Source: a virus (lineage: Duplodnaviria > Caudoviricetes). Taken from it: DNA of 64,000 bases. The notes beneath the pieces were generated by a model. The model did no database searches. It saw nothing but the letters and a program-made list of their open reading frames with translations, and was not told the DNA's origin. Both the position numbers and the translations under genes were made by a program. Below, piece after piece: positions 6,205 through 63,400 of this stretch. The stretch is from positions 4,586 through 68,585 of the IMG/VR virus record IMGVR_UViG_3300031993_000061; one strand, written 5' to 3'. The stretch's first letter is position 1. Every line of letters begins with the position of its first letter.

Positions 6205-6317
6205 CAGAGGGTTAATCACACATAACAATATAATGCAAAAAATAAAATAAACGACATAGGATTTTATGTCGTTTATTTTTATCGCTAAATATACAAAATT
6301 TGACAGAGGAAACAAAA

Positions 6318-6542
6318 ATGGAAACAGAAAAACGCACTATTTTGTACACTATTGGGTGTCCAAACTGCAAAGTTCTCGAAAGGAGATTGGAAGCCAAAAA
6401 GATTCCCTACGATACCGTAACGGACTTAGAAATTATGAAACAAAAAGGTATTAAGTCCGCTCCCTTTTTGGAAGTGGATGGCGAGTTGATGAATTTCGGA
6501 AAAGCGTTACAGTGGGTGAGTCAGTATGGAAACAACAACTAA
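6318..6542 (+). CDS. nrdH: Glutaredoxin / NrdH-like redoxin
   Basis: LYTIGCPNCKVL (CxxC) and SAPFLEVDG; overlaps the start of nrdD. Confidence 0.8.
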   Translation: METEKRTILYTIGCPNCKVLERRLEAKKIPYDTVTDLEIMKQKGIKSAPFLEVDGELMNFGKALQWVSQYGNNN

Positions 6543-9462: not shown

Positions 9463-9466
9463 AAAC

Positions 9467-9500
9467 AAAAGAGTGGGCGTTATTCGCGCCCATTCTTTTT
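9467..9500 (+). terminator. Intrinsic terminator after nrdD
   Basis: AAGAGTGGGCG/CGCCCATTCTT hairpin plus T-tract. Confidence 0.8.
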
Positions 9501-9522
9501 ATGTATAATTTAATAGTATCGA

Positions 9523-9555
9523 TGGGTTGACAAAGACACCCCTTTGTGGTATAAT
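9523..9555 (+). promoter_or_regulatory. Early-type sigmaA promoter
   Basis: TTGACA 9527-32, 17 bp spacer, TGG-TATAAT 9550-55. Confidence 0.85.
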
Positions 9556-9578
9556 GATAATGACAAAAGGGGGTTTTT

Positions 9579-10151
9579 ATGATGAAAATTCTGTATATCC
9601 ACGGTTATAATGGCCACGAAGATGGCATGACGGCGCAGATGATTCGTAACGCTCGTCCGAATGATACGGTGTGTGCGCCCGCTATCGACTATACGCACCC
9701 GCTTGACGCTTGCCGTCAGATTGTCGATGCGGTGAATATCTATCGGCCTGACGCCATTGTTGCTTCGTCTCTCGGCGCATTTTGTGTTCTCCATGAAGAC
9801 TTCGGCGTTTGCAGTGTTCTTATCAATACGGCGCTTCCGAAAGATATGATGAAGATTGTCAGCGATAAATCTATGCTTGCCGAACTTGACGAAATGCTCT
9901 ACGACATTCTGAGCAATTATGACAGGCCGAGAAACGAATTTGTCTACTTCGTTTTTGGCGATAACGATGTGGTTGCCAACAATCGCGAGTATCTGAAATC
10001 TTTATTTTCGTCCGACGGATATGACCATACCTATGTTAAAGAAATGGGACACGCGCTGTCGAAAGAGTGCGTAACGCATGAGTTAAATCACATTCTCAAC
10101 GAGATTGCCTTCTCGGCTCACGTGTTTGGCAACGAAAGGGACTTTCTATGA
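9579..10151 (+). CDS. YqiA/UPF0227-like alpha/beta hydrolase (esterase)
   Basis: ILYIHGYNG, IVASSLGAF nucleophile elbow, FGDNDVV and MGH triad motifs. Confidence 0.8.
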   Translation: MMKILYIHGYNGHEDGMTAQMIRNARPNDTVCAPAIDYTHPLDACRQIVDAVNIYRPDAIVASSLGAFCVLHEDFGVCSVLINTALPKDMMKIVSDKSMLAELDEMLYDILSNYDRPRNEFVYFVFGDNDVVANNREYLKSLFSSDGYDHTYVKEMGHALSKECVTHELNHILNEIAFSAHVFGNERDFL

Positions 10152-10675
10152 AAATCTTACAAGAACATATCGTAAATGCTTGGGAAGCAGAAACAAAACG
10201 GTAGTATCTTGATGAAATATGGGATATGATTACGCTCGCCTATGAAACAATAGGCGGGTGTAATTGCACCAAGGACGAATTATTAGACGAGAATGTCTAT
10301 TGGAAAATGACACGCAGAAACGGAAAAATCACGGCCGTGTGTGTTTACAAGATGACGCCAAATGGGCGTAAAATGTTTTTGTTGGCATCAGACGGTAGCG
10401 AACAAGGAAAGACCGATATTCGCAAGATTATGTCTGAAGATGTAACACAAGAAGAAAGACATTTTTATGCGGAAGTTTCCGGAAAGCCAGAATATATGTA
10501 CAAGAAGCGCGGTGCGAAATCCATTCCGACGTCTGATGTCGAAAAGATTTTGGTCGGCAAAGATATTCAGCCAACTGGAGAAGATGAGTATCGCTATACA
10601 AGACAAGTTGGTCCTGACAAAAAGACATTCACCAAAGTAATGGTTGGAAATCCAAAGATGGAATAGGAGAAATAA
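10148..10675 (+). CDS. Hypothetical, probably virion-internal protein, 175 aa with TAG=Gln (TAG at 10202 and 10664)
   Basis: ATGA overlap with the upstream stop; read-through joins MKILQEHIVNAW to the 10226 ORF and ends at TAA. Confidence 0.7.
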
Positions 10676-10679
10676 GAGA

Positions 10680-11138
10680 ATGGCAATCAATATGGTTGGT
10701 AAGCAAACCGTAAGGGTTTTCTTTGGGATTCAGCAAGATACCGAATTAACGGTAGAAGAGGAAAAGCGATTTTGGAGAGATTTTACCGACGCCGTGGAAA
10801 GCTCGCTTGATGGCGAACTAAGCGACTTCGCGTTAGAAGAAAGTGACATTGATTTTTCACAAGGCGTGCTTGATTGCGACTATCAGTACGACACCACCTT
10901 TGTTGGAAAGTGTTATGGAGAGGGCGATACCAACGAGTTTGGCTATGTCGACGTCGATATTGTCAAAGAGGCATACGGTGTTAATATGGATAAGTTTGCC
11001 GACGCCGTTGAGCGCTCCGATATTTTGAAAGATATTATCGATATCGGAACGGCATTCGCCACCGTTGACGACCCTGACGATTTTGAGTATATCGACGATT
11101 TCGACTTCTACCCGGAGCAAGAGTATTGGGATAGATGA
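10680..11138 (+). CDS. Hypothetical acidic protein
   Basis: ORF coupled to its neighbours. Confidence 0.6.
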   Translation: MAINMVGKQTVRVFFGIQQDTELTVEEEKRFWRDFTDAVESSLDGELSDFALEESDIDFSQGVLDCDYQYDTTFVGKCYGEGDTNEFGYVDVDIVKEAYGVNMDKFADAVERSDILKDIIDIGTAFATVDDPDDFEYIDDFDFYPEQEYWDR

Positions 11139-30590: not shown

Positions 30591-31303
30591 TTCAGATGAC
30601 AGAGCCGGTACGGTCGAACAGAGCAACGGATTCCATTATTGAAAAGGCAATCCAGAAACACTACAATCTCGTCTATCGTATTAACAATATCGCATACGAA
30701 CGTTGTAGTGACAGAGACTTGCAGATTGCCGGCGTGGATGTTTATTTGACATTCGCAAGACAAGACAAACGGAATTGTGTTGACGAAAAATGTGCTACGA
30801 ATTATTGGGACAGACCGCTCAACACCTTTTCGATGGAACTTTCCTTTGATATGTGTGATAAACAGAGCGGTCTTCCTATTGGTAAGCGATATAAAGGTTG
30901 GTTTGTCAATCCGAATAACATTTCGGAATATTATGCACTTGGATATGTTTCCGCTGAAAGCAAAGAGAATTTGATTCAAGGACAGTTAAAGTCATTTGAA
31001 TGCATTTTGGTCAACAAAGACAAAATCCGCGCTTATCTGAAAGACGCCATGAAAGTGACAGACCTTACCGAAGTCGAGGCAGAACTGCAAGCAAGAATCG
31101 ACGCAGGCATAGGAAAACTCAATCAGCGAGGCGGATATTTCTACTATCCTGCCGATGGTATTAAGGTGGTGCGTTCCGAACAGTTGGCAGAGAAACCTGT
31201 CAATATCGTCATTAGTAAACAGACACTATCATCTCTTTCCGATATTCATTGTATCATTACACACCCGGAGAAAGATACATTTGTATATAGGAAGGTATAC
31301 TGA
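30587..31303 (+). CDS. Putative PD-(D/E)xK nuclease-like protein
   Basis: LQIAGVDV..VDEK..FSMEL..GWF pattern. Confidence 0.55.
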   Translation: MIQMTEPVRSNRATDSIIEKAIQKHYNLVYRINNIAYERCSDRDLQIAGVDVYLTFARQDKRNCVDEKCATNYWDRPLNTFSMELSFDMCDKQSGLPIGKRYKGWFVNPNNISEYYALGYVSAESKENLIQGQLKSFECILVNKDKIRAYLKDAMKVTDLTEVEAELQARIDAGIGKLNQRGGYFYYPADGIKVVRSEQLAEKPVNIVISKQTLSSLSDIHCIITHPEKDTFVYRKVY

Positions 31304-31366
31304 ATGTATTTAGCCGAAATGGAATATCCAAAAATTCGGTGGGTTGACAAATCACATATGATGTGA
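31304..31366 (+). pseudogene. Remnant 5' end of a DUF29-like gene, truncated at an early promoter
   Basis: MYLAEMEYPK resembles the starts of 31461 (MQLNEMSYPR) and 33409 (MYLTEMAYSR). Confidence 0.5.
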
Positions 31367-31372
31367 TATAAT
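31340..31372 (+). promoter_or_regulatory. Early-type promoter upstream of the tRNA cluster
   Basis: TTGACA 31344-49, TGA-TATAAT 31367-72. Confidence 0.85.
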
Positions 31373-31460
31373 AGTATCATCAAAGAACAATCATCAATTC
31401 GGTGTTCCTCGGTGAAAATCCGAGTCTTGGGCCGAAAGATAAAACGATGAGGTATCAAAT

Positions 31461-31820
31461 ATGCAATTAAACGAAATGTCTTATCCGAGAAGCGAGGTCA
31501 TTGATAGGTGTGCTTCTCTTGGCGAAAAGTTTATAGAGCATTTTGAAAAGTCATATATTGGCGGCATTGATTCAAAAGATTTGAAACATCATTGTGCCGA
31601 AATGCAGTCTTGGTATGATACCGTAAATCGCATGACAATTAAGCCAAGAGCAAAGATGTTAGATATCGACCAAATGATTAACTGGTTTTTCCTTGCTGGT
31701 GGGTCTCTCGAATATATGTTCAATAATAACGACGATATGCAAAACGCTTATAACAAGTTTATCAAATTACTTCTCATGAGCGACGATGTTTATAACTCAA
31801 TGTTAAAAGTTTTTGCATAA
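31461..31820 (+). CDS. DUF29-like protein (tentative)
   Basis: EMSYPRSEVI..FIEHFEK..HHCAEM; paralog of 33409. Confidence 0.5.
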   Translation: MQLNEMSYPRSEVIDRCASLGEKFIEHFEKSYIGGIDSKDLKHHCAEMQSWYDTVNRMTIKPRAKMLDIDQMINWFFLAGGSLEYMFNNNDDMQNAYNKFIKLLLMSDDVYNSMLKVFA

Positions 31821-31830
31821 ACACATTGGT

Positions 31831-31903
31831 GCTTATTCAGAAGTCAATAAGTCAAAGGTTGAGTTAGACGGTGACATTAGTTGGTTCGAGTCCAACCTTA
31901 GCA
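31831..31903 (+). pseudogene. Degenerate tRNA-like sequence
   Basis: Perfect T-arm GTTGG-TTCGAGT-CCAAC at the expected position in 73 nt; acceptor stem mismatched and no anticodon arm. Confidence 0.35.
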
Positions 31904-31937
31904 AAAAGTCACACTGTTCACAACCGCCAATAGAGAC

Positions 31938-32012
31938 GCCCCGTTGGCGCAAAGGTAGCGCACGAGATTTGTAATCCCGTGGTTGTCCGTCCGAGTCGGA
32001 CACGGGGCTCCA
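31938..32012 (+). tRNA. tRNA-Thr(UGU)
   Basis: GCCCCGT/ACGGGGC acceptor stem, loop TTTGTAA, encoded CCA; atypical T-loop TCCGAGT. Confidence 0.88.
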
Positions 32013-32292
32013 ACTGCTTGTTTGAATAATCCACTAAGAGAACAAGACTTATCAGATGAAGGATTACATCGTGGATAAGGGTGACGGCTAAGGCATAAAT
32101 CCGTCAATGTGAGATACCATTTATTTTTTCTTCCTAAATCTCACGAACAACATTATCTCCGCAAGTTAGCAAATGGCGAGCAAATATTGTTGTACAACAA
32201 TATCGCAGAAACCACTATAATGCACCGTGAGTCCGGACATACTAATAGTCGTGTGCTGATGTGGAATAACGGCATTCGTGCGGAGATATTAT

Positions 32293-32366
32293 CGAGAATG
32301 TAGTGTAATGGTAGCACGCCACATTTGGGATGTGGAAGAGCCGTTCAAATCGGACATTTTCGACCA
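32293..32366 (+). tRNA. tRNA-Pro(UGG)
   Basis: CGAGAAT/ATTTTCG acceptor stem, CCACA-TTTGGGA-TGTGG anticodon arm, A73, CCA. Confidence 0.9.
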
Positions 32367-32416
32367 TCTTGGTGTGTTATTCTACAAAAATAAAATCAAA
32401 GAAAAGAAAACACAAA

Positions 32417-32848
32417 ATGAGTAAGCACGACAAAAAATATCAATTAAAAGAGGGTTGTATTTATAAACCACAGTTGCTTTCTAACTTTTCTTTACATATC
32501 GACACCGATGACGACGTTGGTGTGTTAAATAAAAGTTTGGTAAGCGTTCATCTTCCAATCAAGAACTTCGGCGATGTTCAGTCAGGTTGTGGAGAACTTG
32601 GGTTGCAGTTTATTGATTTCCCTGAACTTCATACCTATTCGGAAGCGTACAATCTTGCGAATAATATTGTGAATGGCGCGGTAGACCACCTTGAGGTGAT
32701 TGCCTACAATGGAGACTGGTCGCCGAATACACGGTATTGTATCAAACTTGGACATCTTGCCTCGTTGAGTTCTAACGCTTTTAAGCAGGCAGAAGGATAC
32801 CACTATATCTATCTTGACATATCCGTTAAGGATATGACGATTAAGTAA
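32417..32848 (+). CDS. Hypothetical protein within the tRNA cluster
   Basis: 143 aa ORF. Confidence 0.6.
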   Translation: MSKHDKKYQLKEGCIYKPQLLSNFSLHIDTDDDVGVLNKSLVSVHLPIKNFGDVQSGCGELGLQFIDFPELHTYSEAYNLANNIVNGAVDHLEVIAYNGDWSPNTRYCIKLGHLASLSSNAFKQAEGYHYIYLDISVKDMTIK

Positions 32849-32879
32849 CACAACAATAGAAATAACACACCAAATATAT

Positions 32880-32969
32880 AGACGGTTACCCAAGTGGTTA
32901 AGGGAGCGGGCTTTGACCCCGTCAGATGTAATATCCTTTGCGTAGGTTCGAGTCCTACACCGTCTGCCA
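32880..32969 (+). tRNA. tRNA with UUG (Gln) anticodon and a long class II-type variable arm
   Basis: AGACGGT/ACCGTCT acceptor stem, GCGGG-CTTTGAC-CCCGT anticodon arm, 19-nt variable region, G73, CCA; 90 nt. Confidence 0.85.
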
Positions 32970-33192
32970 TCGAAGCACCATCTGGTGTAAACTTAGTGCA
33001 AAGTTATCGCATAGCACCATCTGGTGTTGGTCGAAAGACCAAAGCGGATTGTATGCACATTTGGTAGGGTTCGCCCTTAATGAATCCTTGTGCGTATGTT
33101 CGACCCTGAGTTTTAACAACGCAGACTGTCAGCCGAGGGGCAGTATCCATAACTGCAAGAAATGGGTGGCGGCTCGGAAAGACGAGCAATAC

Positions 33193-33266
33193 TGGGGTGT
33201 CGTTTAATGGCAAGACTTGGCGCTCTAACCGCCATAATGTCTGTTCGATTCAGACCGCCCCCGCCA
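33193..33266 (+). tRNA. Amber suppressor tRNA(CUA), Gln-like
   Basis: TGGCG-CTCTAAC-CGCCA anticodon arm; unpaired U1-C72, G2-C71, G3-C70 and G73 (Gln-type); T-arm GTCTG-TTCGATT-CAGAC; CCA. Confidence 0.93.
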
Positions 33267-33408
33267 TAGAAATTATTTAGGGGCTTTGTACTTAATAAGC
33301 GTGTTTATTATTTGATAAAGCATTTTACAAAGCGTTGGGTTTTAAGGTTTTAATGTATTGCCACTAATGGGGCTTTGTAAAAACAAATTGTTTTATACGA
33401 GGTATCAT

Positions 33409-33870
33409 ATGTATCTTACGGAAATGGCGTATAGCCGAGACAATGCTATTGAGTATGTAAGGGATGTTCTTCCCGAGATTAAGGAACATTTAATCAAATG
33501 TATTCTGTATCAAGACATGACTGACACGGTATCGCATTGGATAAATACAGAAATAACGCCGGATATTTATGATATTGCGACAATCAAGACAAAAACGCCT
33601 CGTGGTAAACTAACGGAAAACGATTACATTACACTTTTCATAGAGTCATTTAATGATGATGTAGAAGATGCCGCTCGTGACATGATGAGTTTTTACCGTC
33701 ATAATCGGCGTAATCCAGAGTATCCAATCCGTGTACCAACGGAAGAAAATGCACAAAAGTTGGCGCGAGTCTACGATTATTTTAAGACGCAGTTTTCCAA
33801 AAACTTCTCTGAGAAGACAACGTTGACAAAAGAACAAATCAATCAGGTAATGTGGGGGCTTCTTGCATAA
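33409..33870 (+). CDS. DUF29-like protein (tentative)
   Basis: EMAYSRDNAI..IKEHLIKCILY..SHWINTEI pattern. Confidence 0.55.
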   Translation: MYLTEMAYSRDNAIEYVRDVLPEIKEHLIKCILYQDMTDTVSHWINTEITPDIYDIATIKTKTPRGKLTENDYITLFIESFNDDVEDAARDMMSFYRHNRRNPEYPIRVPTEENAQKLARVYDYFKTQFSKNFSEKTTLTKEQINQVMWGLLA

Positions 33871-36392: not shown

Positions 36393-38396
36393 ATGGATAA
36401 CAGAGCATAGCAAATTTTAGCAGGGTTGTCAGAAGAAGAGAAAAAATAGGTTCTTGCCATTTTGGCTGAGTATCAGAAGAATGGTAATTCTGAACAATTC
36501 AATGAAATCAAGTATGCCGATTATGATGAGATTCCAGTTGACATCAATACCTTTATGCGAGATGAAGAATATCTCGGCAAGGGTCTTATTGATGAAAACG
36601 GAAGATTCACGGTGTTCCCATATTGGGTCAAAACATTAAATCAAATTTTTCCAACCAATGTTGATACCGCATATAATACATTTGTTGCCACGGGAGGCAT
36701 TGGTCTTGGGAAGTCGTTTGTATAGGTTATCTGCGGTATCTATATTCTCTATCGTTTAATGTGCTTAAAAAATCCATATACTTTCTATGGATTACAGCCG
36801 ATAGATATTATCACATTTGCCTTTATGAATATTACCATAGAGGCCGCAGAGGGCGTGGCTTGGAGCAAATTCCAACAGTTAGTACAGTCGTCTCCATGGT
36901 TTATGAAAAGAGGTACTATTACCGGAACTACCAACTTGGTATGGAATCCCCCAAAAGGAATCGAACTGATTTATGGTTCGAGAGATACACACGTACTTGG
37001 CCGTGCCGTGTTCTGGGGAATGGTTGATGAGTTAGATTTCCAACAGAACAAAGACTTGGAGCAACAGCGAGAAAAGGCACGCAAAATTGTTTCTGCACTT
37101 GCGCGAAGAATGGAATCGCGTTTTATGAAAGGGAACAAAAATCCCACGCTCTTATGCCTTGCTTCTTCTAAGACAGATTAGCAGGCGTTTATTGAGCGCT
37201 ACATTGAAGATAAGCGCGGCAAGGGTAGTAAGACAACTCTTATTGTAGATGAGCCGTAGTGGGTAATCCGTGACGATAAGGACAGTCCTATTAAGTTCCG
37301 TGTTGCCGTTGGTAATAAATTTCTTGAATCCGAAATTATCCCTGACAATGTTGTTGATACAAAGTCGTATTTAGATAGAGGGTTCAGCATATTAGAAGTG
37401 CCGTCAGGTTATCGAGAGTCCTTTGAAGATAACCTTCCAAAGGCGTTACAAGAAATTGCAGGCATAGCGACAAGCGGAACAAACCGTTATCTGCTTGGCG
37501 CAAGAATACAAGAGGCAAAGAACTACGCATTACAAAACCCATTCAGTTCAGATGTTATTGAGTGCGGTTTGAATACAGACAATCAGTATTACGAATGGTT
37601 TGATATTTCAAAAATTGACCCTGCTATGAAAAGCAAACCGCTGTTCATACACCTCGATATGTCTGTGTCTGGTGACAAGACGGGTATTGCCGGTGTGTGG
37701 ATAAGAGGTAAGCGGCCTACAAGAAATGGCGTTCCTTCTAATGACCTGTACTATCAATTGGCGTTTGGCGTCTCCGTGAAAGCACCGAAAGGATATCAAA
37801 TCTCATTTGCCAAAAACAGAGAGTTTATCTACTGGTTAAAGCAATAGGGTTTTAATATCAGAGGAATTTCAACAGACTCATTCCAAAGTGTGGAAACTGG
37901 CCAATCATTACAGCAGGGCGGATTTAACTATAAGATGATTTCTGTCGATAGGGTTGATTCGCAAAGCCGTACTTGTTTGCCGTATCTTACGATGAAGAAT
38001 GCCATTTATGAAAAAAGACTTGCTCTCATTGACATTCGGTTGATGACGGAAGAGATGGTTGGTCTTGAAATTGACGCAAATGGTCGTGTCGACCATAGCC
38101 CATCTGGCATCAATTCGAAGGATTTATGCGATGCTATCTGCGGTGCAACATATCACGCTTCTCAACACGCAGAAGAGTATGCGTTAGAGTATGGTGAGAA
38201 TTTGATTGAACAAATTCCGCAAGTAAACCGTTCTTCCATCGAAGAACAACATTCGGATATTCAAAAAGAATTTGAAGCGGCGTTGCGACAGCAATTCAGT
38301 TAGCAATATCGCGAACCTCAATCTATGTTCAGCCCAGAAGTAGAGCGCAGATTGAAAAGGCAAAGACAGATAAATAACGGTATTTTGGTTTGGTAA
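36393..38396 (+). CDS. terL: Terminase large subunit, 667 aa with 7 TAG codons read as Gln
   Basis: One frame throughout, with TAGs at 36408, 36447, 36723, 37179, 37257, 37845 and 38301. Walker A TGGIGLGKS, Walker B GMVDE, RNase H-like IHLDMSVSGDKTG, ISTDSFQS and SKDLCDA; directly precedes the portal gene. Confidence 0.92.
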
Positions 38397-45683: not shown

Positions 45684-47021
45684 ATGGAAATTACCAAAGA
45701 ATCCATTGAACAATTTTATATAGCCGAAAATCACAATTATAAAGATAGCGCCAAGCATTTCGGCATAACCGCTCGAAAGTTTATGAGTATTATCCAATCT
45801 TACGGAATCAGCAAACGTTCTATGGGTCAAGTGGCCAAAACGGTCGTGACAAGAACGCATGAGAGTTATGTGTCTGGCGGAAAGAAGTCATCTGATACAC
45901 AACGCCGAAATTGGGAGCAGAAGTCTGACGAAGAAAAATCGGCGTGGTCTCGCAAGATGAGCGAATCTCATAAGACGGCGCAGTATCAATCTATCAAGGC
46001 GTTACAAAATAGTGCCTATCGTTCTTCTCTTACGGATGAAGAAAATGCGAAACAGAACCAAATGCGTAGCGAATCAATGAAAGAATATTGGGCGTCGCTG
46101 TCGAAAGAGGAAAAGGACGAGAAAATTGCCAAACAGTTTTCTGGCATGATGTCTGCTTCTCATATTGCTAATACAAGGCCAAATCTCGACTTTATGAGAA
46201 AGTTGGAAGAAAACAACATTCCTTACCAGAGAGAATTTCGTATCGGCAAATACGCCTATGATTTTCTGATAGGAAAAACTGTTGTCGAAATCAATCCGTC
46301 TGTTACGCACAATATCACGTGGTCTCCATTTGAAAACAATAAGGCAAATACAGATAAGCATTATCATTCAGAGAAAACACAAAATGCCATCGATAATGGG
46401 TATCGCTGTATTCATATATGGGATTGGGATGATGTTGACAAAATTATTGACTTGCTGAAATCAAGAGATAAGATATATGCCCGTCTATGCGTTGTTGAGG
46501 AAATATCAGAACAAGAGGCGGAAGATTTTATCAACACCTATCATCTGCAAGGTTATGTGAAATCAGAACTGCGGTTTGGATTGCGCCACAACGGTGAATT
46601 AGTTGCCGTAATGACGTTTGGTAAGCCGAGGTATAATCACAACTATCAGTATGAATTACTTCGTTTCTGCGCCAAATACAGCGTTACTGGTGGGTCTTCA
46701 AAACTATTCCATTATTTTATCGAAAATTATAAACCGTCGTCTGTTATCAGTTATTGTGACAACAGCAAGTTTAGCGGCAATACCTATATCAATCTCGGAT
46801 TTATCAGAGAGCGATTTTCTTATGGGAAACACTGGTATAATGTCCGCACTAAAGTTCATATCACGGACAATCTGTTACGAGCAAGAGGTTTCGACCAACT
46901 GTTCGGTGATGTTTATGGGAGATTTGGTAAAGGAACAAATAACGATGAGTTAATGAGACAATTTGGTTTTGTCGAAATCATTGACGCAGGCCAATCAACC
47001 TATATTTATAAACGAGGATAA
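45684..47021 (+). CDS. Free-standing Hef-like putative homing endonuclease
   Basis: REFRIGKYAYDF..VEIN..RCIHIWDWD..IYARLC..HLQG..YELLRFC..GGSSKLF..ISYCD. Confidence 0.75.
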   Translation: MEITKESIEQFYIAENHNYKDSAKHFGITARKFMSIIQSYGISKRSMGQVAKTVVTRTHESYVSGGKKSSDTQRRNWEQKSDEEKSAWSRKMSESHKTAQYQSIKALQNSAYRSSLTDEENAKQNQMRSESMKEYWASLSKEEKDEKIAKQFSGMMSASHIANTRPNLDFMRKLEENNIPYQREFRIGKYAYDFLIGKTVVEINPSVTHNITWSPFENNKANTDKHYHSEKTQNAIDNGYRCIHIWDWDDVDKIIDLLKSRDKIYARLCVVEEISEQEAEDFINTYHLQGYVKSELRFGLRHNGELVAVMTFGKPRYNHNYQYELLRFCAKYSVTGGSSKLFHYFIENYKPSSVISYCDNSKFSGNTYINLGFIRERFSYGKHWYNVRTKVHITDNLLRARGFDQLFGDVYGRFGKGTNNDELMRQFGFVEIIDAGQSTYIYKRG

Positions 47022-49051: not shown

Positions 49052-49123
49052 TATATGGGTTGACTTTTCGGTTCGATTGTGCTATAATAGAAGTATCAGA
49101 GAAGAAAGAAGAGGATAACAGAT

Positions 49124-50176
49124 ATGCCAATCGGCGACGTTTATAAAGTCAATAGAGAACCTGTTCTTGTCAAGACCTATAAGGATGGCTCGACGAGATG
49201 GCATAGCGAAGCGTGTCCGAAATGTGGCGGGACTGGCTACCTTCACGGCTATGAGCATATAGACGGTGCACGGTGTTGGAAATGTAACGCCACTGGCCGT
49301 TATCCTCACGAGTGGACAGAACCGTCTGACGAGCGCATTGAGAAGCAGAGAGCCAAAGAAAAGGCAAAACTGATAGCGCAAGCCGACGAGAAGAATGCCT
49401 ACTTTATGAAATCTCACGGATTCAACGATGACGGCAAGACATATCTCGTTCTTGGCGATACCTATTCCATCAAGGACGACCTGAAATCTCTCGGCGCAAA
49501 GTTTGATTATCTGATGGGCTGGAAACTGCCGAAAGATACCGACAAATATCCGACTGTCGAAATCGCGATTGACGAAGTGACAGACAAAGACGAAAATGGT
49601 TGGCTCATCTATAAGCCGAATATGGATATCGAAGAGGTTGTCAAGAAGAAGAAACAAGCGTATGCAGACAGCCACAAATCCGAAGAAGAAAAAGACAAGA
49701 ATGTCAAAATATCTGACTATCTCGGAAATGTCGGCGAAAAGATTACCGTGACGGCCAAACTCATTAAAGAGTACACATACGATACCAACTATGGGTACTA
49801 TGGCGGCACAAGCACCATTTATACTTTTGAGGACGATAATGGTAATAAAATCCTGTGGACGACATCTTCTATGCCATATGTGAACGATAAGCCGATTGAG
49901 AGCGGAAAAACATATACTATTACCGGTACGGTGAAAGAACATAAAGAATATAAGGGCGAAAAAGAGACCGTTCTGACAAGGTGTAAACTGACAGCGGCCA
50001 CAAATGAGTCTCTTAACTACATCGTAGAAGAAACAGAAGATGATGCCATCATGCGTCGCGAAGAGTGGAATAAAGACGCCGGATATTACGAGAGAGATGG
50101 TGTATATAAGCCGAAGGTAGATGTCAAAACCGGAGCGATGATTCTACCAAAAGAAATCTATGATATGTGGAATTGA
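49124..50176 (+). CDS. Zn-ribbon plus OB-fold phage protein with an added C-terminal module
   Basis: CPKCGGTG..CWKCNATG; YLGNVGEKIT..TGTVKEHKEYKGEKETVLTRCK; promoter 49060/49083. Confidence 0.7.
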   Translation: MPIGDVYKVNREPVLVKTYKDGSTRWHSEACPKCGGTGYLHGYEHIDGARCWKCNATGRYPHEWTEPSDERIEKQRAKEKAKLIAQADEKNAYFMKSHGFNDDGKTYLVLGDTYSIKDDLKSLGAKFDYLMGWKLPKDTDKYPTVEIAIDEVTDKDENGWLIYKPNMDIEEVVKKKKQAYADSHKSEEEKDKNVKISDYLGNVGEKITVTAKLIKEYTYDTNYGYYGGTSTIYTFEDDNGNKILWTTSSMPYVNDKPIESGKTYTITGTVKEHKEYKGEKETVLTRCKLTAATNESLNYIVEETEDDAIMRREEWNKDAGYYERDGVYKPKVDVKTGAMILPKEIYDMWN

Positions 50177-50182
50177 GACAAT

Positions 50183-50617
50183 ATGCAAAAATATGATATC
50201 TATTATGTCTCAATGTCTTATGTATAGGACAGAATTGTCTCGGATAATCCAAGAACGAAGAGACGACCGTGTGTGATTAAAGAAATCTATGATGATACTG
50301 TTGTCTTAATGGCCATGATTACATCTAAACGACATCAAAATCAGTATGAGATACGCGATTGGCGAGACGCAGGCCTAACAAAACCATCGTACATCAATTA
50401 TGCTGTTGAGTAGAAATATCAGAAAAAAGATATTAAGCAGAACGATTATGTCGGACATTTGTCTGCTTTCGATATACATCGTATTAAATCACAGCATCTT
50501 GATGAAGATTTCGACCCCAACGGTCATTATACGGAAGACGGCGTTTTTGTTCCAAAGCATGACCCAATCACCGGCATCCCGCTGATACCGAAAGATATTT
50601 GGGATATGTGGGACTAA
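50183..50617 (+). CDS. PemK/MazF-like endoribonuclease, 144 aa with TAG=Gln (TAG at 50225 and 50411)
   Basis: KYDIYYVSMSY..TKRRPCVI..MAMITSK..IRDWRDAGLTKPSYI..VGHLSAFD; absent from the standard-code ORF track. Confidence 0.72.
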
Positions 50618-50732
50618 ATTATAGATAAGGGATTGCTCAATAAGCAGTCCCTCTTCTTTCTTTTATGGGTTGACGAACCCATATTTTTTGTTGTATAATT
50701 TACATAGACTGAATAGATAAAAAGGTATCGCT

Positions 50733-51200
50733 ATGCGACAAAGATTATGTGAAGCAACCATATACGATATTAACCGAAGATTCGGTAATAATATCCGTGT
50801 GTAGAGAAGCAAGAAATACTCTGTACGTATTAAAGAATATCTGTTAGACCCACTTTATATTATCTTTGAGGTAACTGGCGGAACAAAGCCGTATGAAGTT
50901 CATGTGGCTTTTGAAAAGGTTGCGCCAAAAACCGTATCGGCTCTGAAAAATTCTCTGAAAAACGGTCAGGTCAAAATCAGTTGCGCGTGCAAAGATTTCG
51001 CATACAGATTTAATTACAGCGCCACGAAGAACAACTTCTCTCTTGGTGGAGAACACAGACCGTCGAATATTACCAATCCGAATGATTCGCTTGGTCCTGC
51101 TTGTAAACACGTGGCGGCCGTTTTGAAGAATACAAACTGGGTATACGCATTGATGGCCGATATGAAGAAAACAGAACGCAAAGAGGACGAGAAGAAATGA
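50733..51200 (+). CDS. SWIM Zn-finger protein, 155 aa with TAG=Gln (TAG at 50802)
   Basis: VTGGTKPYEV..ISCACKDFAYR..CKHVAAVL; upstream promoter 50670-50701. Confidence 0.75.
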
Positions 51201-53911
51201 TAATCAGTATTTACTACTTGAAACCTCAATATGAAGAATTCTTCCGACAGTCCTATGATTATATCGTAGACGCCACTGGTGAAAATCCGAAGAAATCCTA
51301 TTATGAGAAAGTTTTTACCGGCGAGGTAGAAGAAGAGGTCGATATCGACGGTCTCTATGATATTGTGACGAATGATATGCCACAGAATTTTGTCGGACAC
51401 GACTTTGGTGTTTCTGATGTCATAGGGATTGATAAGGGTAACGAACATCTCAAAGAGGGTTCTTATTACTTCTGTGACATTATCGGATGGGATAAGTTAC
51501 ATAGTTGGGAAGAGGAAGAGAAAGAAAATATCAACGAGGCGGACGAAAACCGACAAAACAATCTGTTCTTTTCTACCGAGAAACCATTTGATAAATCAAA
51601 AGGCATGACTGGTCGCGGTGAAGAGGGTGCATTCTTCTGGGAAGATGAAAAGACGGCCAGAGAGACAATGAAAAATCTCAACCACGCCGATGGTTATGTG
51701 TACTCGATTTATTCGCCAGATGTGCAAAAACCGTTGGTGATAGACGACGATATTGTCAAGTGGGACGGTGACAATCTGTCAGACTTATTGCTTTGCAAAC
51801 TCCATAATGAACCGTATGATATTTGGAGAGACGGCGACCCACGCGACTTTATCCATCCAGATAAGATTCATATAGATAACCTTGTCCCTGAAGATGAAAA
51901 AATTCTATTAAGAGCCAAAAACTTTCATGACGTCTTCCGTTTTATCCGGTCAAAGGGATTTGACCATATCCAATATCTGAATAAAATGGATACGCCAGTC
52001 AATCCGCAATATGCTATTATTTTGGATTATAACAGTCGGTTTGATTTTGATACGCTAACAGAATTGACGGAATCGGAAGCGTATGACCAAATAAAAAATC
52101 GTAACGAAAGAGAAAGTGAAAACAATATGAAAGAATCCGCACCGCTGTACGAATCAGACGACATTGACGAGAAGTTGATTCAGTCTGCTTCCGACGACGC
52201 TTTCAAAAAGAATGTGGCCACCGAAATCAAAGCCGGCAAGCCACAAAAGCAAGCCCTTGCGATTGCCTATGATATTCAGAGGAAAAATAAGAAGTCTATG
52301 AAAGAAGCCAATACAGAAGAATCCAAAGGAATGATTGATGTTCTCGGTGATGTCAAGGAATCCGTTGACGGAAAAGCCGATTTTGAAGTTACCATTAACG
52401 AAGTTGACGACGAACTCGAACCTATTGACGGAACGGAAACGGTCGTTCCTGTTACTGTTGACGAGGTAATCAAGCGTTTCAGCGATAAGACATATCAATG
52501 GGCTATTCGTGGTTGGACGAGAGACAACGCGAATGAATACTTCAAAACTCATTCCAATAGCGAACTTGCTCACATGGTTAGCGATATCGCTTATGATAAA
52601 TATCATCAACAGCCGGAAAACAAACATAAACTCCATCACTTCACAAAGATTGAACTTGTGAATCCAGAGGCGCTTCCGAGCCAAGAGGAAATTGATGAAA
52701 AGAGTTTCCAAGAGTTAAGAAAGAAACTCGGAAAGATTCTGTTGCCTCCGAGATATAAGACAGAATCGTTAGGAGAAGCATCTCCAAATTATAACGCCTC
52801 GCCTAATAGTTGGATTATTGAACTTGTACCAGAAACGCCGATTGGTTTACGCAGAATGTATTGGAACGGAAAATCATTTGAAGAGTTTGCAAACATTCAT
52901 GACCCAGAAATCGCAAAGAAGTGTCCTATGTATAGCAAGAAAGACGCTATTGAGAAACAGAAAGAATTACGCAAGCAATATCCAGACGATATGATTCTTC
53001 TTTGGTGGTACGGCCTTGCGAATGAGTCGCTGACGGAATCCGAAGAACTCGATAGACACTATTTTGCTTCACTCGTGAAACTTGGTGACCATCCTTACGA
53101 CGGATATTCCATTTTGAACGACGGGTACTTTGTCAGAAGAATTCATGCCGAGTCCGACGACGACGCTATTCAGCAGTTCCGCGATTGGGTGGACAACGGC
53201 GGTACGAGCCAAAGAGAGTCCAAGGTTTGCGAATCGAAATATGATATTCATTACAGCACCGACAGTCTTGATGGAGAAGAATTAAAGTATATCGAAGAAT
53301 TTGAGGGCGACCATGTGGCTCTGCTCGATTATATCAAGCAAATGCGTGATAATGGTTGCTACAATATCTGGACGTCCGAAATTACCGGAGATGTTGACGA
53401 GGACGATTTTGATGACGAAGATTCTGACGACCGTTATGAGCGCATTCGTCACAAAATGGTTTATGATTCCGATGGTTTCACGACAGACTATACGCTTTAT
53501 TTCGACCACAAGGACAATAACTATTTTACCGTTTTCGGCGATGACGAACTGTACGGCCCCGATTCCGAACACGATATGGATTTCGAGGCAAACGAAAAGG
53601 CCGCTATTGAATGGTTTGAAGACTACAATGGTCTTATCGACGACGACGAAGAAGAGTTTGATTTCGACATTGACGACATCGAACCATACGAGGGTGGCGT
53701 TATCAAAAACGAGTGGAAGTTTGAGTCGTTAAAGGAATCCGATGACGACAGACCGCTTCGCGTTTGCCGCTCTTGCCTGATGGGAATCGAAGCACACGAA
53801 GGAAATCAGCACGCCAAGCATATTTATATCGATGTCGATGATGTCGACGAAGAAGAAACCAAATGTGATTGGTGCGAAGAGACTGGTTTTGACGAATTGT
53901 GGGAAATCTAA
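51197..53911 (+). CDS. 904-aa polyvalent multidomain protein (YodL-like N-terminus, ART-like domain, C-terminal Zn ribbon)
   Basis: YEKVFTGEV..PQNFVGHDFGVSDVI..CDIIGW (YodL-like); GAFFWED..KPL..KGFDHIQY; CRSC..CDWC; many xxES junctions. Confidence 0.6.
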   Translation: MIISIYYLKPQYEEFFRQSYDYIVDATGENPKKSYYEKVFTGEVEEEVDIDGLYDIVTNDMPQNFVGHDFGVSDVIGIDKGNEHLKEGSYYFCDIIGWDKLHSWEEEEKENINEADENRQNNLFFSTEKPFDKSKGMTGRGEEGAFFWEDEKTARETMKNLNHADGYVYSIYSPDVQKPLVIDDDIVKWDGDNLSDLLLCKLHNEPYDIWRDGDPRDFIHPDKIHIDNLVPEDEKILLRAKNFHDVFRFIRSKGFDHIQYLNKMDTPVNPQYAIILDYNSRFDFDTLTELTESEAYDQIKNRNERESENNMKESAPLYESDDIDEKLIQSASDDAFKKNVATEIKAGKPQKQALAIAYDIQRKNKKSMKEANTEESKGMIDVLGDVKESVDGKADFEVTINEVDDELEPIDGTETVVPVTVDEVIKRFSDKTYQWAIRGWTRDNANEYFKTHSNSELAHMVSDIAYDKYHQQPENKHKLHHFTKIELVNPEALPSQEEIDEKSFQELRKKLGKILLPPRYKTESLGEASPNYNASPNSWIIELVPETPIGLRRMYWNGKSFEEFANIHDPEIAKKCPMYSKKDAIEKQKELRKQYPDDMILLWWYGLANESLTESEELDRHYFASLVKLGDHPYDGYSILNDGYFVRRIHAESDDDAIQQFRDWVDNGGTSQRESKVCESKYDIHYSTDSLDGEELKYIEEFEGDHVALLDYIKQMRDNGCYNIWTSEITGDVDEDDFDDEDSDDRYERIRHKMVYDSDGFTTDYTLYFDHKDNNYFTVFGDDELYGPDSEHDMDFEANEKAAIEWFEDYNGLIDDDEEEFDFDIDDIEPYEGGVIKNEWKFESLKESDDDRPLRVCRSCLMGIEAHEGNQHAKHIYIDVDDVDEEETKCDWCEETGFDELWEI

Positions 53912-58897: not shown

Positions 58898-58997
58898 TGA
58901 TACCGTCTATCAGCGCGTATAATGCGCTGTGAGCGATGTTTGGCTTTTGCGGTTAATGATACCAAGAAAGCCAAACTTTTCATTATAGAGCAAATGT

Positions 58998-60362
58998 GTG
59001 CGTGACAGAGGTATTTTAGAGTTGGGAAATCAATATAGTTTAATTGTCGGCGTAAATGATTTAGCGACAAAGTATCCAGAGATTGCCTCCGAATGGGACT
59101 ATGAGAAGAATGGCGAACTAACGCCACAGCACACTTATTGTAACAGCAATAAAAAGGTGTGGTGGATTGGTGCGTGTGGCCATTCGTATATGGCAAATCC
59201 GAATAATCGTACACATGGTAGCGGATGTCCATATTGCCGTGGAATGAAGGTTTTGTCAGGATTTAACGATTTGTTATCTCGGTATCCTTCAGTAGCGTCG
59301 GAGTGGAATTATGTCAAAAATGATATTTTGCCACATAATGTACAATGTCATACAAAAAAGACATACTGGTGGAAATGCGCATATGGACACGAGTGGCAAC
59401 AATCTGTTATAAGAAGAACTATTGATGGATGTAAGTGTCCAATGTGTAAGAATGGCAATCATGTAAGTTTTCCGGAAAAAGCCATGCTGTTCTATGTTGT
59501 TCAAATCTTTAATGATGCAGTTGGAAATTATCGTTCTGATTGGCTAAATGGTTTCGAATTAGATATCTTTATTCCATCTATTAACACGGCTATTGAGTAC
59601 GACGGAGAAAGATGGCACAATGAGGCGAGTAGCGACAAGGAACTAAGAAAGTATTTGCTTTGCAAAGAACAAAATATAAAACTAATTCGTATCAGGGAGC
59701 GTATAGTGGGCAATGAGCGTTTGATATCCGATTCGTGTATTTCAATATCAAATGCCAACATATATAAGAGTAAGAAGGCGTTTTCATCGCTCATATATGA
59801 GACTTTATGTCAGTTGACCGCATTCAGACCGTGGCTACGCAAGAACATTGATATAGACATAGAAAGAGATTGCCAGACAATTAAGTCGTCGTATCTCTAT
59901 GGTAATGCCAAAAACAACCTGAAAGAGTTAGTACCAGACATAGACAAATATTGGGATTACAGTAAAAATGCCAACTCTCCGAATTTGCACAACGCCTATT
60001 CCAGAGACAATGCGTGGTGGATTTGCCCAGATTGTGGCATATCGTTCCAAAAGACCGCCACTAATTGGTATCGTCGTGGGGATATCAGACCGTATTGTCC
60101 AGAGTGTACACAAAAACACCGCTATCTAAAGGCGAGCCTGCATAAGCAAAAACCCATAATCGGCACAGATAAATTAGGTGAGCAACTTCGATTCAATAGT
60201 GCGAGAGAAGCATCTGAATATTTATATGATAATTTTGGCGTGTCACGGGACTCGTACAAGAATATTAGCGCTTGTCTGCGCGGAAAACAGAACACCGCCT
60301 ACGGTTATCATTGGGAATATGTCGACAATGAACCTTGGGTTGACAACGAAAACACAAAGTGA
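58998..60362 (+). CDS. Zn-ribbon repeat (DUF4379-like) protein with a Vsr/DUF559-like nuclease domain; putative free-standing endonuclease
   Basis: Repeated YPEIASEWD..KVWW.C..GH..CP.C; ELDIFIPSINTAIEYDGERWH. Confidence 0.72.
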   Translation: MRDRGILELGNQYSLIVGVNDLATKYPEIASEWDYEKNGELTPQHTYCNSNKKVWWIGACGHSYMANPNNRTHGSGCPYCRGMKVLSGFNDLLSRYPSVASEWNYVKNDILPHNVQCHTKKTYWWKCAYGHEWQQSVIRRTIDGCKCPMCKNGNHVSFPEKAMLFYVVQIFNDAVGNYRSDWLNGFELDIFIPSINTAIEYDGERWHNEASSDKELRKYLLCKEQNIKLIRIRERIVGNERLISDSCISISNANIYKSKKAFSSLIYETLCQLTAFRPWLRKNIDIDIERDCQTIKSSYLYGNAKNNLKELVPDIDKYWDYSKNANSPNLHNAYSRDNAWWICPDCGISFQKTATNWYRRGDIRPYCPECTQKHRYLKASLHKQKPIIGTDKLGEQLRFNSAREASEYLYDNFGVSRDSYKNISACLRGKQNTAYGYHWEYVDNEPWVDNENTK

Positions 60363-60401: not shown

Positions 60402-63400
60402 TTGAACTATACACCTTATCACGTTCATACCGATTATTCTTTGCTTGACAGTTGCACGCAATATACCGACTATATTGACAAAGCAAAAGAATGTGGTATG
60501 TCGGCGATTGCATTTTCGGAACACGGCAAAATCAGCGGTTGGTTTAAGAAAATGCAATATTGTCGTAAAAACGGTCTGAAATATATTCATGCGGTTGAGT
60601 GTTATTTGACCAAAGAATTAGACGCAAAATTACGAGACAATTATCATACCATTCTAATTGCCAAAAATACGGCAGGCATGAAAGAACTGAATACCGTTAT
60701 CGGAAAGTCATTCGATAAAGACCATTTCTATTATAGTAACAGAATTTCTTTTGATGAGTTTCTTTCACTTTCCGATAACATTCTGACAACGTCTGCTTGT
60801 TTGGCAAGTCCGTTGAACAAATTGGAAAAGTTAGACCCTTATTACGATAAACTTCTGAATCGCTACGACTATTTAGAGATTCAGCCACACGACGATGACG
60901 AACAGAGGGCATTCAATATCGACCTTGCCTTTATGGCTGATAAATGGCATAAGCCGTTGATTGCAGGTACGGATACACACTCTTTGAATTCGTATAAGGC
61001 AGAATGCAGAACGATTCTGATGAAATATAAAGGCAAATCTTATGGTAATGAAGACCATTTTGATTTGGTTTTCAAAACATATGAAGAATTGCTTTATGCT
61101 TTTGAGAAACAGAACTGTCTGCCGGAAAGTGTATATCGCGAAGCCATTGAAAACACGAACACAATGGCCAATATGATAGAAGAATATGATGTGGACACTT
61201 CCGCTAAATATCCGATTCTATACGGCTCGAAAGAGGCAGACCACGAGAAGTTTATTGAACGGATTCATACCAAGTTCCAAGAAAAAATTGACAATGGGAT
61301 TATTCCGCAGAATCAAGTAGAGTCGTTCAAAAAGGCCATCGACGAAGAAATCCGTGTCTTTACCAAAATTGGTATGGACGGCTTTATGCTTTCGATGTCT
61401 GAAATCCTTGATTGGTGTCACCAAAACGGCATTGTGACAGGTACGGCAAGAGGTTCTGTTGGCGGTAGCCGTGTGGCGTATCTTATCGATATTATTGATA
61501 TGAATCCCGAAGATTGGGGAACTATCTTCTCTCGGTTTGCGAATGAAAATCGAATTGAGCTCGGTTGATTATCACTATTGAGCCGAGCGTTTGAATAAAC
61601 CTATTGAACTGCTGGAAACTCCTTAGAGACACATTAACCACAACGTATGCATGAAACAAGGCAAGGCGTGAAGGTTTGAAAATAATGTGTATTGGACAAT
61701 CAGCAACAAAGCCCCGAACAGGGGAATGCTCAACGACCATCGAAAGCATAGCCAAATGGCAAAGAAGCGAGTAGAGTAGGGCGACAGCCCGAAGTGGTAG
61801 GCATCCGACATCGGATGAAGATATGGTCTGGTCTTTATGGAAACATAAAGTGAGTGAATCTCATTTATATTAAGTGTGTTATATATAATTTAGACAGAAA
61901 GGTGGTGATAATGTGGGAAAAATGCATGATATTACTAATAATAGATATAATCACTGGACGGTATTGCGATTCGACAAGAGAGACGGCGAGAGATATCGAT
62001 GGATTTGCCGGTGTGACTGTGGTACGATACGCAGTGTAGAGGCATCGTCGTTAAAATCTGGCGCAACAAAGTGTTGTGGTTGTATTAAGCATCCGGCCAA
62101 GGGGAACTTGAAGCACGGTGGCAGGAATGAACGCCTATATGGTGTATGGAACGGAATGAAAAACCGTTGCTACGATGCTGACGATAGGGCTTTTAAGTGG
62201 TATGGTGGAAGAGGAATCAAAGTATGCGACGAGTGGGTCAATGATTATGGTGCATTTCGTCAGTGGGCATTAGAGAACGGCTACGATGATTCGTTGAATA
62301 AATATGAATGTACCATAGACAGAATCAATGATAATGGCGACTATTCACCAGACAATTGTAGGTTTACCAATATGGTAGTTCAAAACAACAATCGTCGCTC
62401 TAACGTCGTGATAACATTCAATGGTGAAAGCCATACTTTGAAAGAATGGTCATATATCACTGGGCTTAATTATTCCATGCTAAAGAAACGATACAAGTAT
62501 GGGTGGAGCGCAGAACGAATGTTATCAACACCAAACACACACAAACACACTTAATATAAAAACATAAACGGACATAGATACTGACGTCATCGAAGAAGAC
62601 AGGCCAAAAATATTCCGTCACGTTATCGACAGATTCGGAGAGGAAAAATGCGCGAGAGTGACGGCGTTTGGTACAATTGCAGACAAGGCCGCCATTGATG
62701 AGATAGGCGGTGCGCTTGCCAAGTATTGGGACGAGCAACACCAAGATGGTGGCGACAATCCGTATTCGCTCGCTCGTATCAAGGCCATCAAGAAAGAGTA
62801 TTCTGAAAACCCAGACGCTACCAAACAAAAGTATAAAGATATTTTCTATTATTACGACGGTCTTGTTGGGACAAAAGTCTCACAGTCCATTCACCCCGCT
62901 GGTATGGTTATCTCGCCAGTAAATCTCCGAGAGAATTATGGCGTATTCAACAAGGACGGCGACGACTGCTTGTTCCTCGATATGGATGAATGCCACGATT
63001 TAGGCCTTGTAAAATACGACTTCCTTTGTCTTGTCAATGTCAAGATTATTAAGGAAACTTGTGAAATGCTCGGCATACCATATCCGAAATCATACCAAAT
63101 GAATTGGAATGACGAAGCCGTATGGAAAGATATGCTACGCACTTCAAGCGGTATCTTTCAGATGGAATCAGACTTTGCTTTTCAGTTGTTAAGCAAACTG
63201 AAACCGAAAAACATTGTCGAGATGTCGCACATTACGGCCGCAATCCGTCCTGCTGGTGCTTCGTACCGAGATGACCTTGTGGCAAGAAAACGTCACGATA
63301 ATGGCTCTAAATTGATTAACGACCTTTTGGACAAGAACTATGGCTTCTTGATTTATCAAGAGGATGTGACCAAGTTCCTAACGGATATTTGTGGATTCAG

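Follow-up and report, generated by a model that had tools for sequence, protein, structure and literature searches.

A MazF-like gene of a TAG-recoded phage and the portable C-terminal tail encoded upstream of its clade

The locus described here lies within a stretch of 64,000 nucleotides (hereafter the window) from a virus of the Caudoviricetes (Duplodnaviria; IMG/VR record IMGVR_UViG_3300031993_000061, positions 4,586 to 68,585), which represents part of a 68.6-kb virus record with a completeness estimate of 35%. At 50183-50617 on the plus strand, the window carries an open reading frame (ORF) of 144 codons with an ATG start and a TAA stop, whose product (P0001) is 144 residues long if TAG is read as glutamine and consists of a MazF/PemK-like domain (residues 1 to approximately 105), followed by a short C-terminal peptide, to which we refer as a tail. 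Two TAG codons are located in frame, at codon 15 (50225-50227) and at codon 77 (50411-50413), and the gene directly upstream on the same strand (49124-50176) ends in a related tail. A first-pass annotation of the window had described the ORF as an orphan MazF/PemK-like RNase gene, which is hidden in the standard code by the two TAGs. The TAGs and the sequence motifs quoted there are all present; this observation stands, whereas the interpretation attached to it, i.e. the orphan status and a role of the TAGs as a genetic-code safety catch, mostly does not.

The MazF fold proposed for the ORF, a twisted antiparallel beta-sheet or barrel with a helix at the C-terminal side, is corroborated by the structural comparisons. 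The AlphaFold2 model of P0001, based on an alignment of 65 sequences, has a mean predicted local distance difference test score (pLDDT) of 90.8, reaching about 97 for residues 1-105, and its top Foldseek matches in the PDB are all MazF toxins (MoxT, SaMazF, MazF-mt3 and BsMazF; probability 1.00, target-normalised template modelling score 0.62-0.70). The Pfam model PemK_toxin matches residues 4-102 nearly over its full length (model positions 3-102 of 109, E-value 0.0031), yet with a score of 18.2 bits, which is below the Pfam gathering cutoff of 23.1 bits. This cutoff is exceeded by two members of the same clade (L071 with 34.4 bits and L072 with 29.3 bits), 35 of the 39 clade members tested match PemK_toxin (best E-value 5.6e-11), and P0001 itself is matched by PHROG 1936 ‘MazF-like growth inhibitor’ (9.2e-6). 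Among 1.84 billion representative sequences searched exhaustively with HMMER, 66 relatives of P0001 were detected, 11 of them with E-values below 1e-10; no close relatives were found by tblastn against phage records, a scan of viral contigs or megablast of 12 kb.

Within an alignment of 39 clade sequences, R28 and P29 are invariant, and T47, W60, G64, L65, S69, G91, L93 and D97 are nearly so. When the clade profile was compared with PDB chains, the invariant RRP fell on GVRP(V) and ITS on (A)AIT of the S. aureus and B. cereus MazF proteins, with a match to S. aureus MazF at 5e-8 and additional matches to B. subtilis MazF chains. The aligned positions, which we take to be the catalytic Arg25 and Thr48 of B. 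subtilis MazF, are thus kept; known structures of the family include those of B. subtilis MazF (4MDX/4ME7), S. aureus MazF (4MZP) and M. tuberculosis MazF-mt3 (5HK0). A comparison of the codons of the window gene with those of the closest MazF-like gene (L005) revealed 29 identical, 34 synonymous and 44 non-synonymous codons, a pattern resembling that of purifying selection. We infer that residues 1 to approximately 105 represent a MazF-fold endoribonuclease domain with RNase activity, belonging to a distinct, mostly phage-borne clade. As judged from sequence and model, 50183-50617 is a real and probably active MazF-like toxin gene of a phage in which TAG encodes glutamine.

Reading of TAG as glutamine in this phage (genetic code 15) is well supported, because the window encodes a tRNA with a CTA anticodon (33193-33266, plus strand), because the gene of the large terminase (TerL, 36393-38396) contains seven TAGs that must be sense codons, and because both TAG15 and TAG77 of the MazF-like gene correspond to CAA (Gln) in two related loci (L004 and L005). 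The suppressor tRNA shows acceptor features of the glutamine type (a weak 1-72 pair, G2-C71, G3-C70 and G73), judged by what we take to be the recognition rules of E. coli GlnRS. The seven terminase TAGs belong to about 30 in-frame TAGs among approximately 17,400 plus-strand codons of the window (about 0.17% of the codons), which are spread over about 19 of 87 ORFs; a few, located 2-12 codons ahead of a stop, might be terminators. The 87 plus-strand ORFs called under TAG=Gln end in TAA (60) or TGA (27), which follows by construction. Altogether, we are highly confident that the gene, its fold and the TAG=Gln recoding are real. The genes for the portal, protease, NrdD, primase-helicase and DNA polymerase are free of TAG. 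Close to the suppressor tRNA, ARAGORN calls a Gln(ttg) tRNA of 90 nucleotides with a long variable arm and a discriminator G (32880-32969), whose architecture is that of type II tRNAs (Ser, Leu and Tyr) and odd for a glutamine anticodon, so that a different charging is possible.

The upstream gene encodes 350 residues without any TAG and is separated from the MazF-like ORF by a spacer of 6 nucleotides. Its predicted product is composed of a zinc ribbon, an alpha/beta middle domain, an RPA/SSB-like OB fold (residues about 200-291), a disordered linker (294-303) and a C-terminal tail (tail A, 50066-50173, plus strand), which ends in ...LPKEIYDMWN. The AlphaFold2 model of this protein reaches a pLDDT of 83.7, Foldseek relates its OB fold best to RPA and further OB domains that bind single-stranded DNA, and the protein is matched by PHROG 30451 (6e-43); most of its 64 homologs have about 260-290 residues and are devoid of a tail. 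Both genes are flanked by a sigma-70-like promoter at 49060-49088 on the plus strand (TTGACT-17-TGcTATAAT, 11 of 12 matches with the TG present, preceded by an upstream ATGGGTTGAC motif), which opens the two-gene unit, and by a hairpin with a T-run resembling an intrinsic terminator (50628-50652, plus strand), which closes it; the next promoter follows at 50670-50699. The tight spacing of this bicistronic layout is also seen in 12 other loci. We could confirm the promoter-like site to which the first-pass annotation had pointed at 49060, and its assignment to an early/middle type is plausible, because the motif class is missing from the structural block comprising terminase, portal and protease (35.3-45.6 kb). 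The motif (A/G)TGGGTTGAC occurs 18 times in the window, exclusively on the plus strand, compared to 3.4 expected occurrences, and probably marks a non-structural (early/middle) transcription class; its sites include 9522, 13052, 24458, 31339, 48394, 49055, 50665 and 58154.

It is the tail that connects the MazF-like gene to its upstream neighbour across loci. The tail comprises about 35 residues with the consensus ...G.Y..DG..VP..D..TG..[IL]PK[DE]I[WY]DMW[DN], and we described its C-terminus by the strict pattern [ILV]P[KS][DE]x[WY][DE]xW[DE]. The gene directly upstream ends in this pattern in 10 of the 13 loci with a member of the MazF-like clade, whereas, of the other stop-to-stop frames with 50 or more residues in about 0.7 Mb of fetched DNA (4,747 in total), none has it. 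The endings include ...IFIPKDLWDEWDY, ...LPILPKGEYEDWEY, ...IPYLPKEFWEDWD and ...LIPKDLYDEWD, and the upstream genes terminate between a 3-nucleotide overlap and a 9-nucleotide gap from the start of the MazF-like gene. Apart from the tail, the upstream proteins are mutually unrelated: they comprise the zinc-ribbon/OB protein, proteins of 108-400 residues without a family match and, in L072, a SocA/Panacea protein. The latter has a Panacea/SocA antitoxin domain according to Pfam (1.6e-20) and matches the NCBIfam model SocA_antitoxin at 4.5e-25, yet with 88 bits and hence below the cutoff of 190 bits. Consequently, the MazF-like gene of the window is no orphan, since a gene only 6 nucleotides away ends in the tail that precedes the clade elsewhere. 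The statement that no MazE-like antitoxin ORF is adjacent holds for the MazE family itself; it fails insofar as the adjoining upstream gene bears a conserved partner peptide.

The synonymous sites of the tail vary freely and its register shifts, which places the conservation at the level of the peptide and rules out a nucleotide-level signal; in addition, its terminal TGG-GA(T/G) may contribute a weak Shine-Dalgarno-like element. Approximately 55 of 60 MazF-like proteins have no tail of their own, and nearly all of these are directly preceded by a gene that ends in one. In whole phage records, the tails are confined to the MazF slot (the 68-kb record of the window) or to one toxin island (G001, 127 kb), and 63 viral loci that are more distant and contain the OB-fold core gene have neither a tail nor a MazF-like gene within 4 kb. 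The tail is not represented by any model of Pfam or NCBIfam, and a search of 5.8 billion proteins with the tail profile (longer class) retrieved only P0069 and P0070, the motif being short for the E-value scale of such a search. In L006 (4933-6171), as well as in L007, the OB-fold core gene ends at 286 residues and is followed by free-standing tail ORFs of 65 and 56 residues without any MazF-like gene; these ORFs have the size of antitoxins and may represent orphan ‘immunity’ peptides. The pair of MazF-like gene and tail spans at least three genetic codes (standard, TGA=Trp and TAG=Gln) and GC contents of 29-44%, including clade members on contigs with 29-30% GC that require TGA=Trp (L074 and L076). 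In L076, a gene bearing an intein/LAGLIDADG element adjoins the toxin gene.

How the second tail came to be located on the MazF-like protein itself can be read from a close relative. On both sides of the locus, the contig L003 matches the window at 96-97% identity (blastn), but it lacks approximately 50011-50500, and its upstream gene runs as one uninterrupted ORF into a tail of the tail B type. Because L003 is this similar and yet devoid of about 0.49 kb, we conclude on the basis of the sequences that the toxin gene is located in a gain/loss cassette (about 50011-50500, plus strand), which consists of the linker and tail A, a TGA stop, the 6-nucleotide spacer and codons 1 to approximately 105 of the MazF-like gene. 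Tail B (50498-50614, plus strand), which continues the reading frame of the MazF-like domain and ends in ...LIPKDIWDMWD, corresponds to the original tail of the upstream gene as in L003 and is nearly identical to it. Tail A shares 71% identity with that of L005, the locus that also harbours the closest MazF-like gene, which suggests that tail A and the toxin gene travel together. The two tails of the window share 52% identity as proteins; as DNA, they have merely 26 nucleotides in common at 81% identity, which rules out an assembly artefact or a repeat collapse.

The same relative accounts for a misleading database match. A word-indexed protein search with P0001 gave a single match of nearly full length, P0002, which is not a MazF: it represents the C-terminus of the upstream-gene homolog joined directly to what corresponds to the last 38 residues of P0001 and is encoded on contig L003. 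Public protein databases contain the genes of recoded phages in fragments, and the only near-length match of P0001 is such a misleading fragment; because of this fragmentation, neighbourhood-based discovery of toxin-antitoxin (TA) systems misses genes of recoded phages.

Tails at the C-terminus of MazF-like proteins themselves are found in three divergent members, P0001, P0032 and P0033. Further toxins with tails are encoded by G001, a 126.6-kb phage with terminal repeats, which carries an island of the RNase-toxin type near one genome end (L081, G001:C1:114000-126576, 5357-11001). This island encodes a YafQ-family toxin with a tail (Pfam, 2.2e-11), another protein with a tail, a MazF-like protein with a tail, a 500-residue protein with an MqsR-type Pfam match and a 403-residue protein with a tail; by eye, we judged the 500-residue protein to contain two MqsR-type repeats and the C-terminus of another protein to be RelE/Gp49-like. 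The gene following that of the tailed YafQ protein corresponds to an L082 gene which still starts with a MazF-like domain. Moreover, G001 has a decayed MazF-like gene (10057-10199), of which 25 codons remain, followed by a tail fragment in another frame, and its tails are swapped compared to L082. The recent deletions of MazF-like genes, apparent from G001 and L082, partly explain why tails are located on toxins. As in the comparison of the window with L003, the sequences indicate that MazF-like genes are repeatedly gained and lost through rearrangement at the tails. For the recurring cis tails, self-inhibition, a by-product of insertion or head-to-tail chaining are conceivable options. Other relatives have the MazF-like domain at the N-terminus of proteins of 205-1141 residues with nucleotidyltransferase, SAM-lyase or ferritin-like domains.

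We lean, with slightly better than even confidence, towards the interpretation that the locus encodes a type II-like TA pair, in which a MazF-fold toxin is accompanied by a portable neutralising tail on the upstream protein and in which the TAGs are ordinary glutamine codons. The MazF-like ORF would represent the toxin half of the compact two-gene unit between the promoter at 49060 and the terminator at 50628, and the partner determinant would be the tail of about 35 residues, which the upstream OB-fold protein presents at its C-terminus behind a disordered linker. In MazE-MazF, substrate binding is blocked by the C-terminal tail of MazE, which occupies the concave surface of the MazF dimer (PMC12557383). 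The tail described here most likely binds and masks the toxin in an analogous manner; binding and neutralisation are suggested by the sequence relationships described above. The combination of a nucleic-acid-binding body with a flexible toxin-binding peptide at the C-terminus is the general layout of type II antitoxins, which the upstream protein resembles. Support for the TA interpretation of the clade comes from L072, since Panacea antitoxins with toxins of the PemK/MazF fold are an experimentally validated pairing (PMC8832971). The cassette of tail A and MazF-like gene, about 0.49 kb in size and of L005-like origin, would have landed just before the pre-existing tail B of the OB-fold gene, which would account for the second tail that the toxin carries in cis and that may act in self-inhibition. 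Both TAGs presumably arose from CAA/CAG as ordinary code-15 glutamine codons and would not constitute a dedicated switch. The biological role of such a pair could be host shut-off, addiction or competition between phages.

Several observations weigh against this interpretation. The strict pattern was defined post hoc, when most of the examples had already been seen, and only L082 is fully prospective; three of the 13 loci (L072, L075 and L080) carry just a degenerate version of the tail. There are loci with tails only (L003 and L006/L007), and tails also end toxins themselves, as in the YafQ protein and in the three lineages of tailed MazF-like proteins. The PemK_toxin score of P0001 is below the gathering cutoff, as stated above, and no DNA-binding antitoxin of the MazE, AbrB or ribbon-helix-helix (RHH) type is present. 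The zinc-ribbon/OB protein of the window has no match to an antitoxin family, and among the partners only that of L072 contains a Panacea/SocA domain.

According to the first-pass annotation, the two TAGs of an orphan MazF toxin gene would act as a safety catch, with the mRNA being made early and the protein appearing only after the suppressor tRNA has accumulated. Expression of the gene indeed requires TAG as a sense codon, a promoter of the non-structural class precedes it, and the toxin gene with its two TAGs would be translated after the partner gene, which has none. Moreover, the idea that stop codons delay a harmful nuclease has already been published for recoded gut phages, with an intron endonuclease as the precedent, and extends to a nuclease in an early region (bioRxiv 10.1101/2021.08.26.457843). 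However, the gene has a tail-bearing partner upstream, both TAGs are CAA in the closest homologs, and the TAG sites are not conserved: the single TAG of the L005 gene is located elsewhere, and the L004 gene is free of TAG, even though the phage of L004 appears to be TAG-recoded, as no L004 gene convincingly stops at TAG (the L004 protein, P0003, is without its first 10 or so residues). The TAG density of two in 144 codons is nominally high (P = 0.023, before correction for 87 ORFs), which neither survives this correction nor reaches significance as a share of the glutamine codons (P = 0.052), so that we rejected a specific enrichment of TAG in the toxin gene; that none of the 350 upstream codons is TAG agrees with chance expectation (P = 0.57). 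TAG-bearing genes are scattered across the window, including the neighbouring gene for a SWIM protein. Finally, the suppressor tRNA belongs to a tRNA cluster that is itself preceded by a consensus promoter of the same class (31344-31372, plus strand; 12 of 12 matches with TG), and no terminator-like site is present in 31200-33500, from which no built-in delay is evident. We therefore regard the safety catch as decidedly unlikely and treat the TAGs as ordinary recoded glutamine codons, which may still exert a modest effect of the kind ‘partner first, toxin second’.

Three further explanations differ in what they assume about the tail and the domain. The tail might be a docking or targeting peptide that sends effectors to a third-party receptor, be it the capsid for packaging and co-injection or a host hub, so that the MazF-like protein would be only one of its cargoes. 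One island with tails on several kinds of proteins, including YafQ-type and MazF-type toxins, the recurrence of tailed MazF-like proteins in three lineages and the flexible linker ahead of the tail, as for peptides in cargo loading or hub binding, are in line with this explanation, which we nevertheless consider unlikely: the great majority of MazF-like proteins are tail-less themselves while the gene just upstream supplies the tail, no gene outside the MazF slot or island bears a tail in the window record and in G001, and the tailed YafQ protein of G001 is followed by a gene that still begins with a MazF-like domain in L082. Conversely, the MazF-like domain could mainly be a tail-binding adaptor, comparable to cohesin and dockerin, which assembles effector complexes and whose RNase activity is secondary or lost. 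Its position at the head of large multidomain proteins and the occurrence of tails on diverse neighbours would fit, whereas the catalytic Arg, which is invariant, and the Thr, which is nearly so across the clade, the toxicity implied by the Panacea antitoxin-domain partner in L072 and the repeated deletion and decay of MazF-like genes, as toxins would show, make an adaptor a little less probable still than a safety catch. The least probable is a non-functional relic, with the TAGs as true stops or with an accidental in-frame fusion of a decaying gene to tail B. Compared with a close relative, the cassette constitutes an indel, MazF-like genes decay elsewhere, as in the G001 remnant, and an in-frame junction arises by chance in one of three cases; yet the domain is of full length with all nearly invariant residues intact, both TAGs are at glutamine positions within a phage recoded genome-wide, the architecture of MazF-like domain and tail recurs independently, and there are more synonymous changes than expected from neutral decay.

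Returning to the TA pair, we also considered a broader version, which we put forward tentatively and regard as doubtful rather than probable, in which the tail is a clade-wide neutralising or docking peptide that can be grafted onto upstream proteins, other toxins or the toxin itself, tail-only phages are immune ‘cheaters’, and the cassettes and islands reflect a warfare of toxin and immunity between co-infecting phages. If this were true, the tail-only phages of L003 and L006/L007 would be analogous to the orphan immunity genes of polymorphic toxin systems. MazF toxins themselves are already known; what would be new here is a MazF TA module of recoded and low-GC phages whose determinant is a portable tail. 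The association of a short, transferable C-terminal peptide with a MazF lineage across unrelated partners points to an unrecognised way of building phage TA pairs. If the peptide binds the toxin, it would provide a minimal natural scaffold for MazF inhibitors, explain ‘orphan’ phage toxins without a recognisable antitoxin and represent a testable case of an RNase conflict between phages or between phage and host.

The surroundings of the two-gene unit comprise further features. Directly after the unit, with its own promoter at 50670, an ORF for a SWIM zinc-finger protein with one TAG (50733-51200) overlaps the start of a gene of 904 codons (51197-53911) without an assigned function. Two genes resembling HNH homing endonucleases are located at 45684-47021 and 58929-60362, the latter with one TAG. 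This second gene directly precedes a short DNA polymerase ORF (60402-61568), whose match covers no more than positions 42-442 of a model with 1190 positions, suggesting that the polymerase gene is split by mobile elements.

Compared to known systems, P0001 has the fold, as well as the location of the catalytic Arg in an RP motif and of the Thr in an IT motif, in common with the MazF/PemK/Kid/EndoA toxins (PF02452; 4MDX/4ME7, 4MZP, 5HK0), whose partner gene is likewise located directly upstream in a compact operon. It differs from them by an identity of only about 20-25% and a clade signature of its own (DW..AGL.KPS, GHLS..DI). In addition, the partner of the clade is a portable tail on unrelated scaffolds instead of a MazE, AbrB or RHH antitoxin, and the domain often heads long multidomain phage proteins, while the window copy is fused in cis to a tail.

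With the code-15 gut phages known to encode suppressor tRNAs (Borges et al., bioRxiv 10.1101/2021.08.26.457843; Peters et al., PMC9523058), the window shares a tRNA-CUA, TAGs in a structural/packaging gene (TerL) and replication genes with sparse or no TAGs. The hypothesis that recoding holds back harmful late proteins originates from this literature. In the work of Borges et al., lysis, structural and intron-endonuclease genes are preferentially recoded and toxins are never mentioned, whereas the TAGs of the window are sparse and scattered, with no significant or conserved bias towards the toxin gene.

Clade relatives with nucleotidyltransferase or SAM-lyase domains resemble the effectors with RNase domains among the polyvalent proteins (Iyer et al. 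2017, PMC5512222), which are large, contain 2-15 effector domains and are delivered early. P0001, with 144 residues, one domain and a tail, differs from these proteins, and the RNases described there have the BECR fold, with no occurrence of PemK, MazF, CcdB or Kid domains (PMC5512222). The tailed MazF-like proteins P0001, P0032 and P0033 combine an N-terminal toxin with a C-terminal antitoxin-like element, as do fused, self-inhibited TA systems such as CapRel SJ46 (PMC9712102). Their toxin fold is different and their C-terminal element far smaller, self-inhibition would follow from this likeness by analogy, and the fusion in the window can be traced to the insertion of a cassette.

The closest conceptual parallel to the tail loci is provided by the PanA antitoxins (Panacea/DUF4065/SocA-like), whose combination with PanT toxins of the PemK/MazF fold (Kurata et al. 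2022, PMC8832971) is exactly the pairing found in L072. There, too, modular antitoxin scaffolds are mixed with different toxins, also in phages. The partner in the window has no Panacea domain, however, and what is kept across the partners of the MazF-like clade is the tail and not a globular domain.

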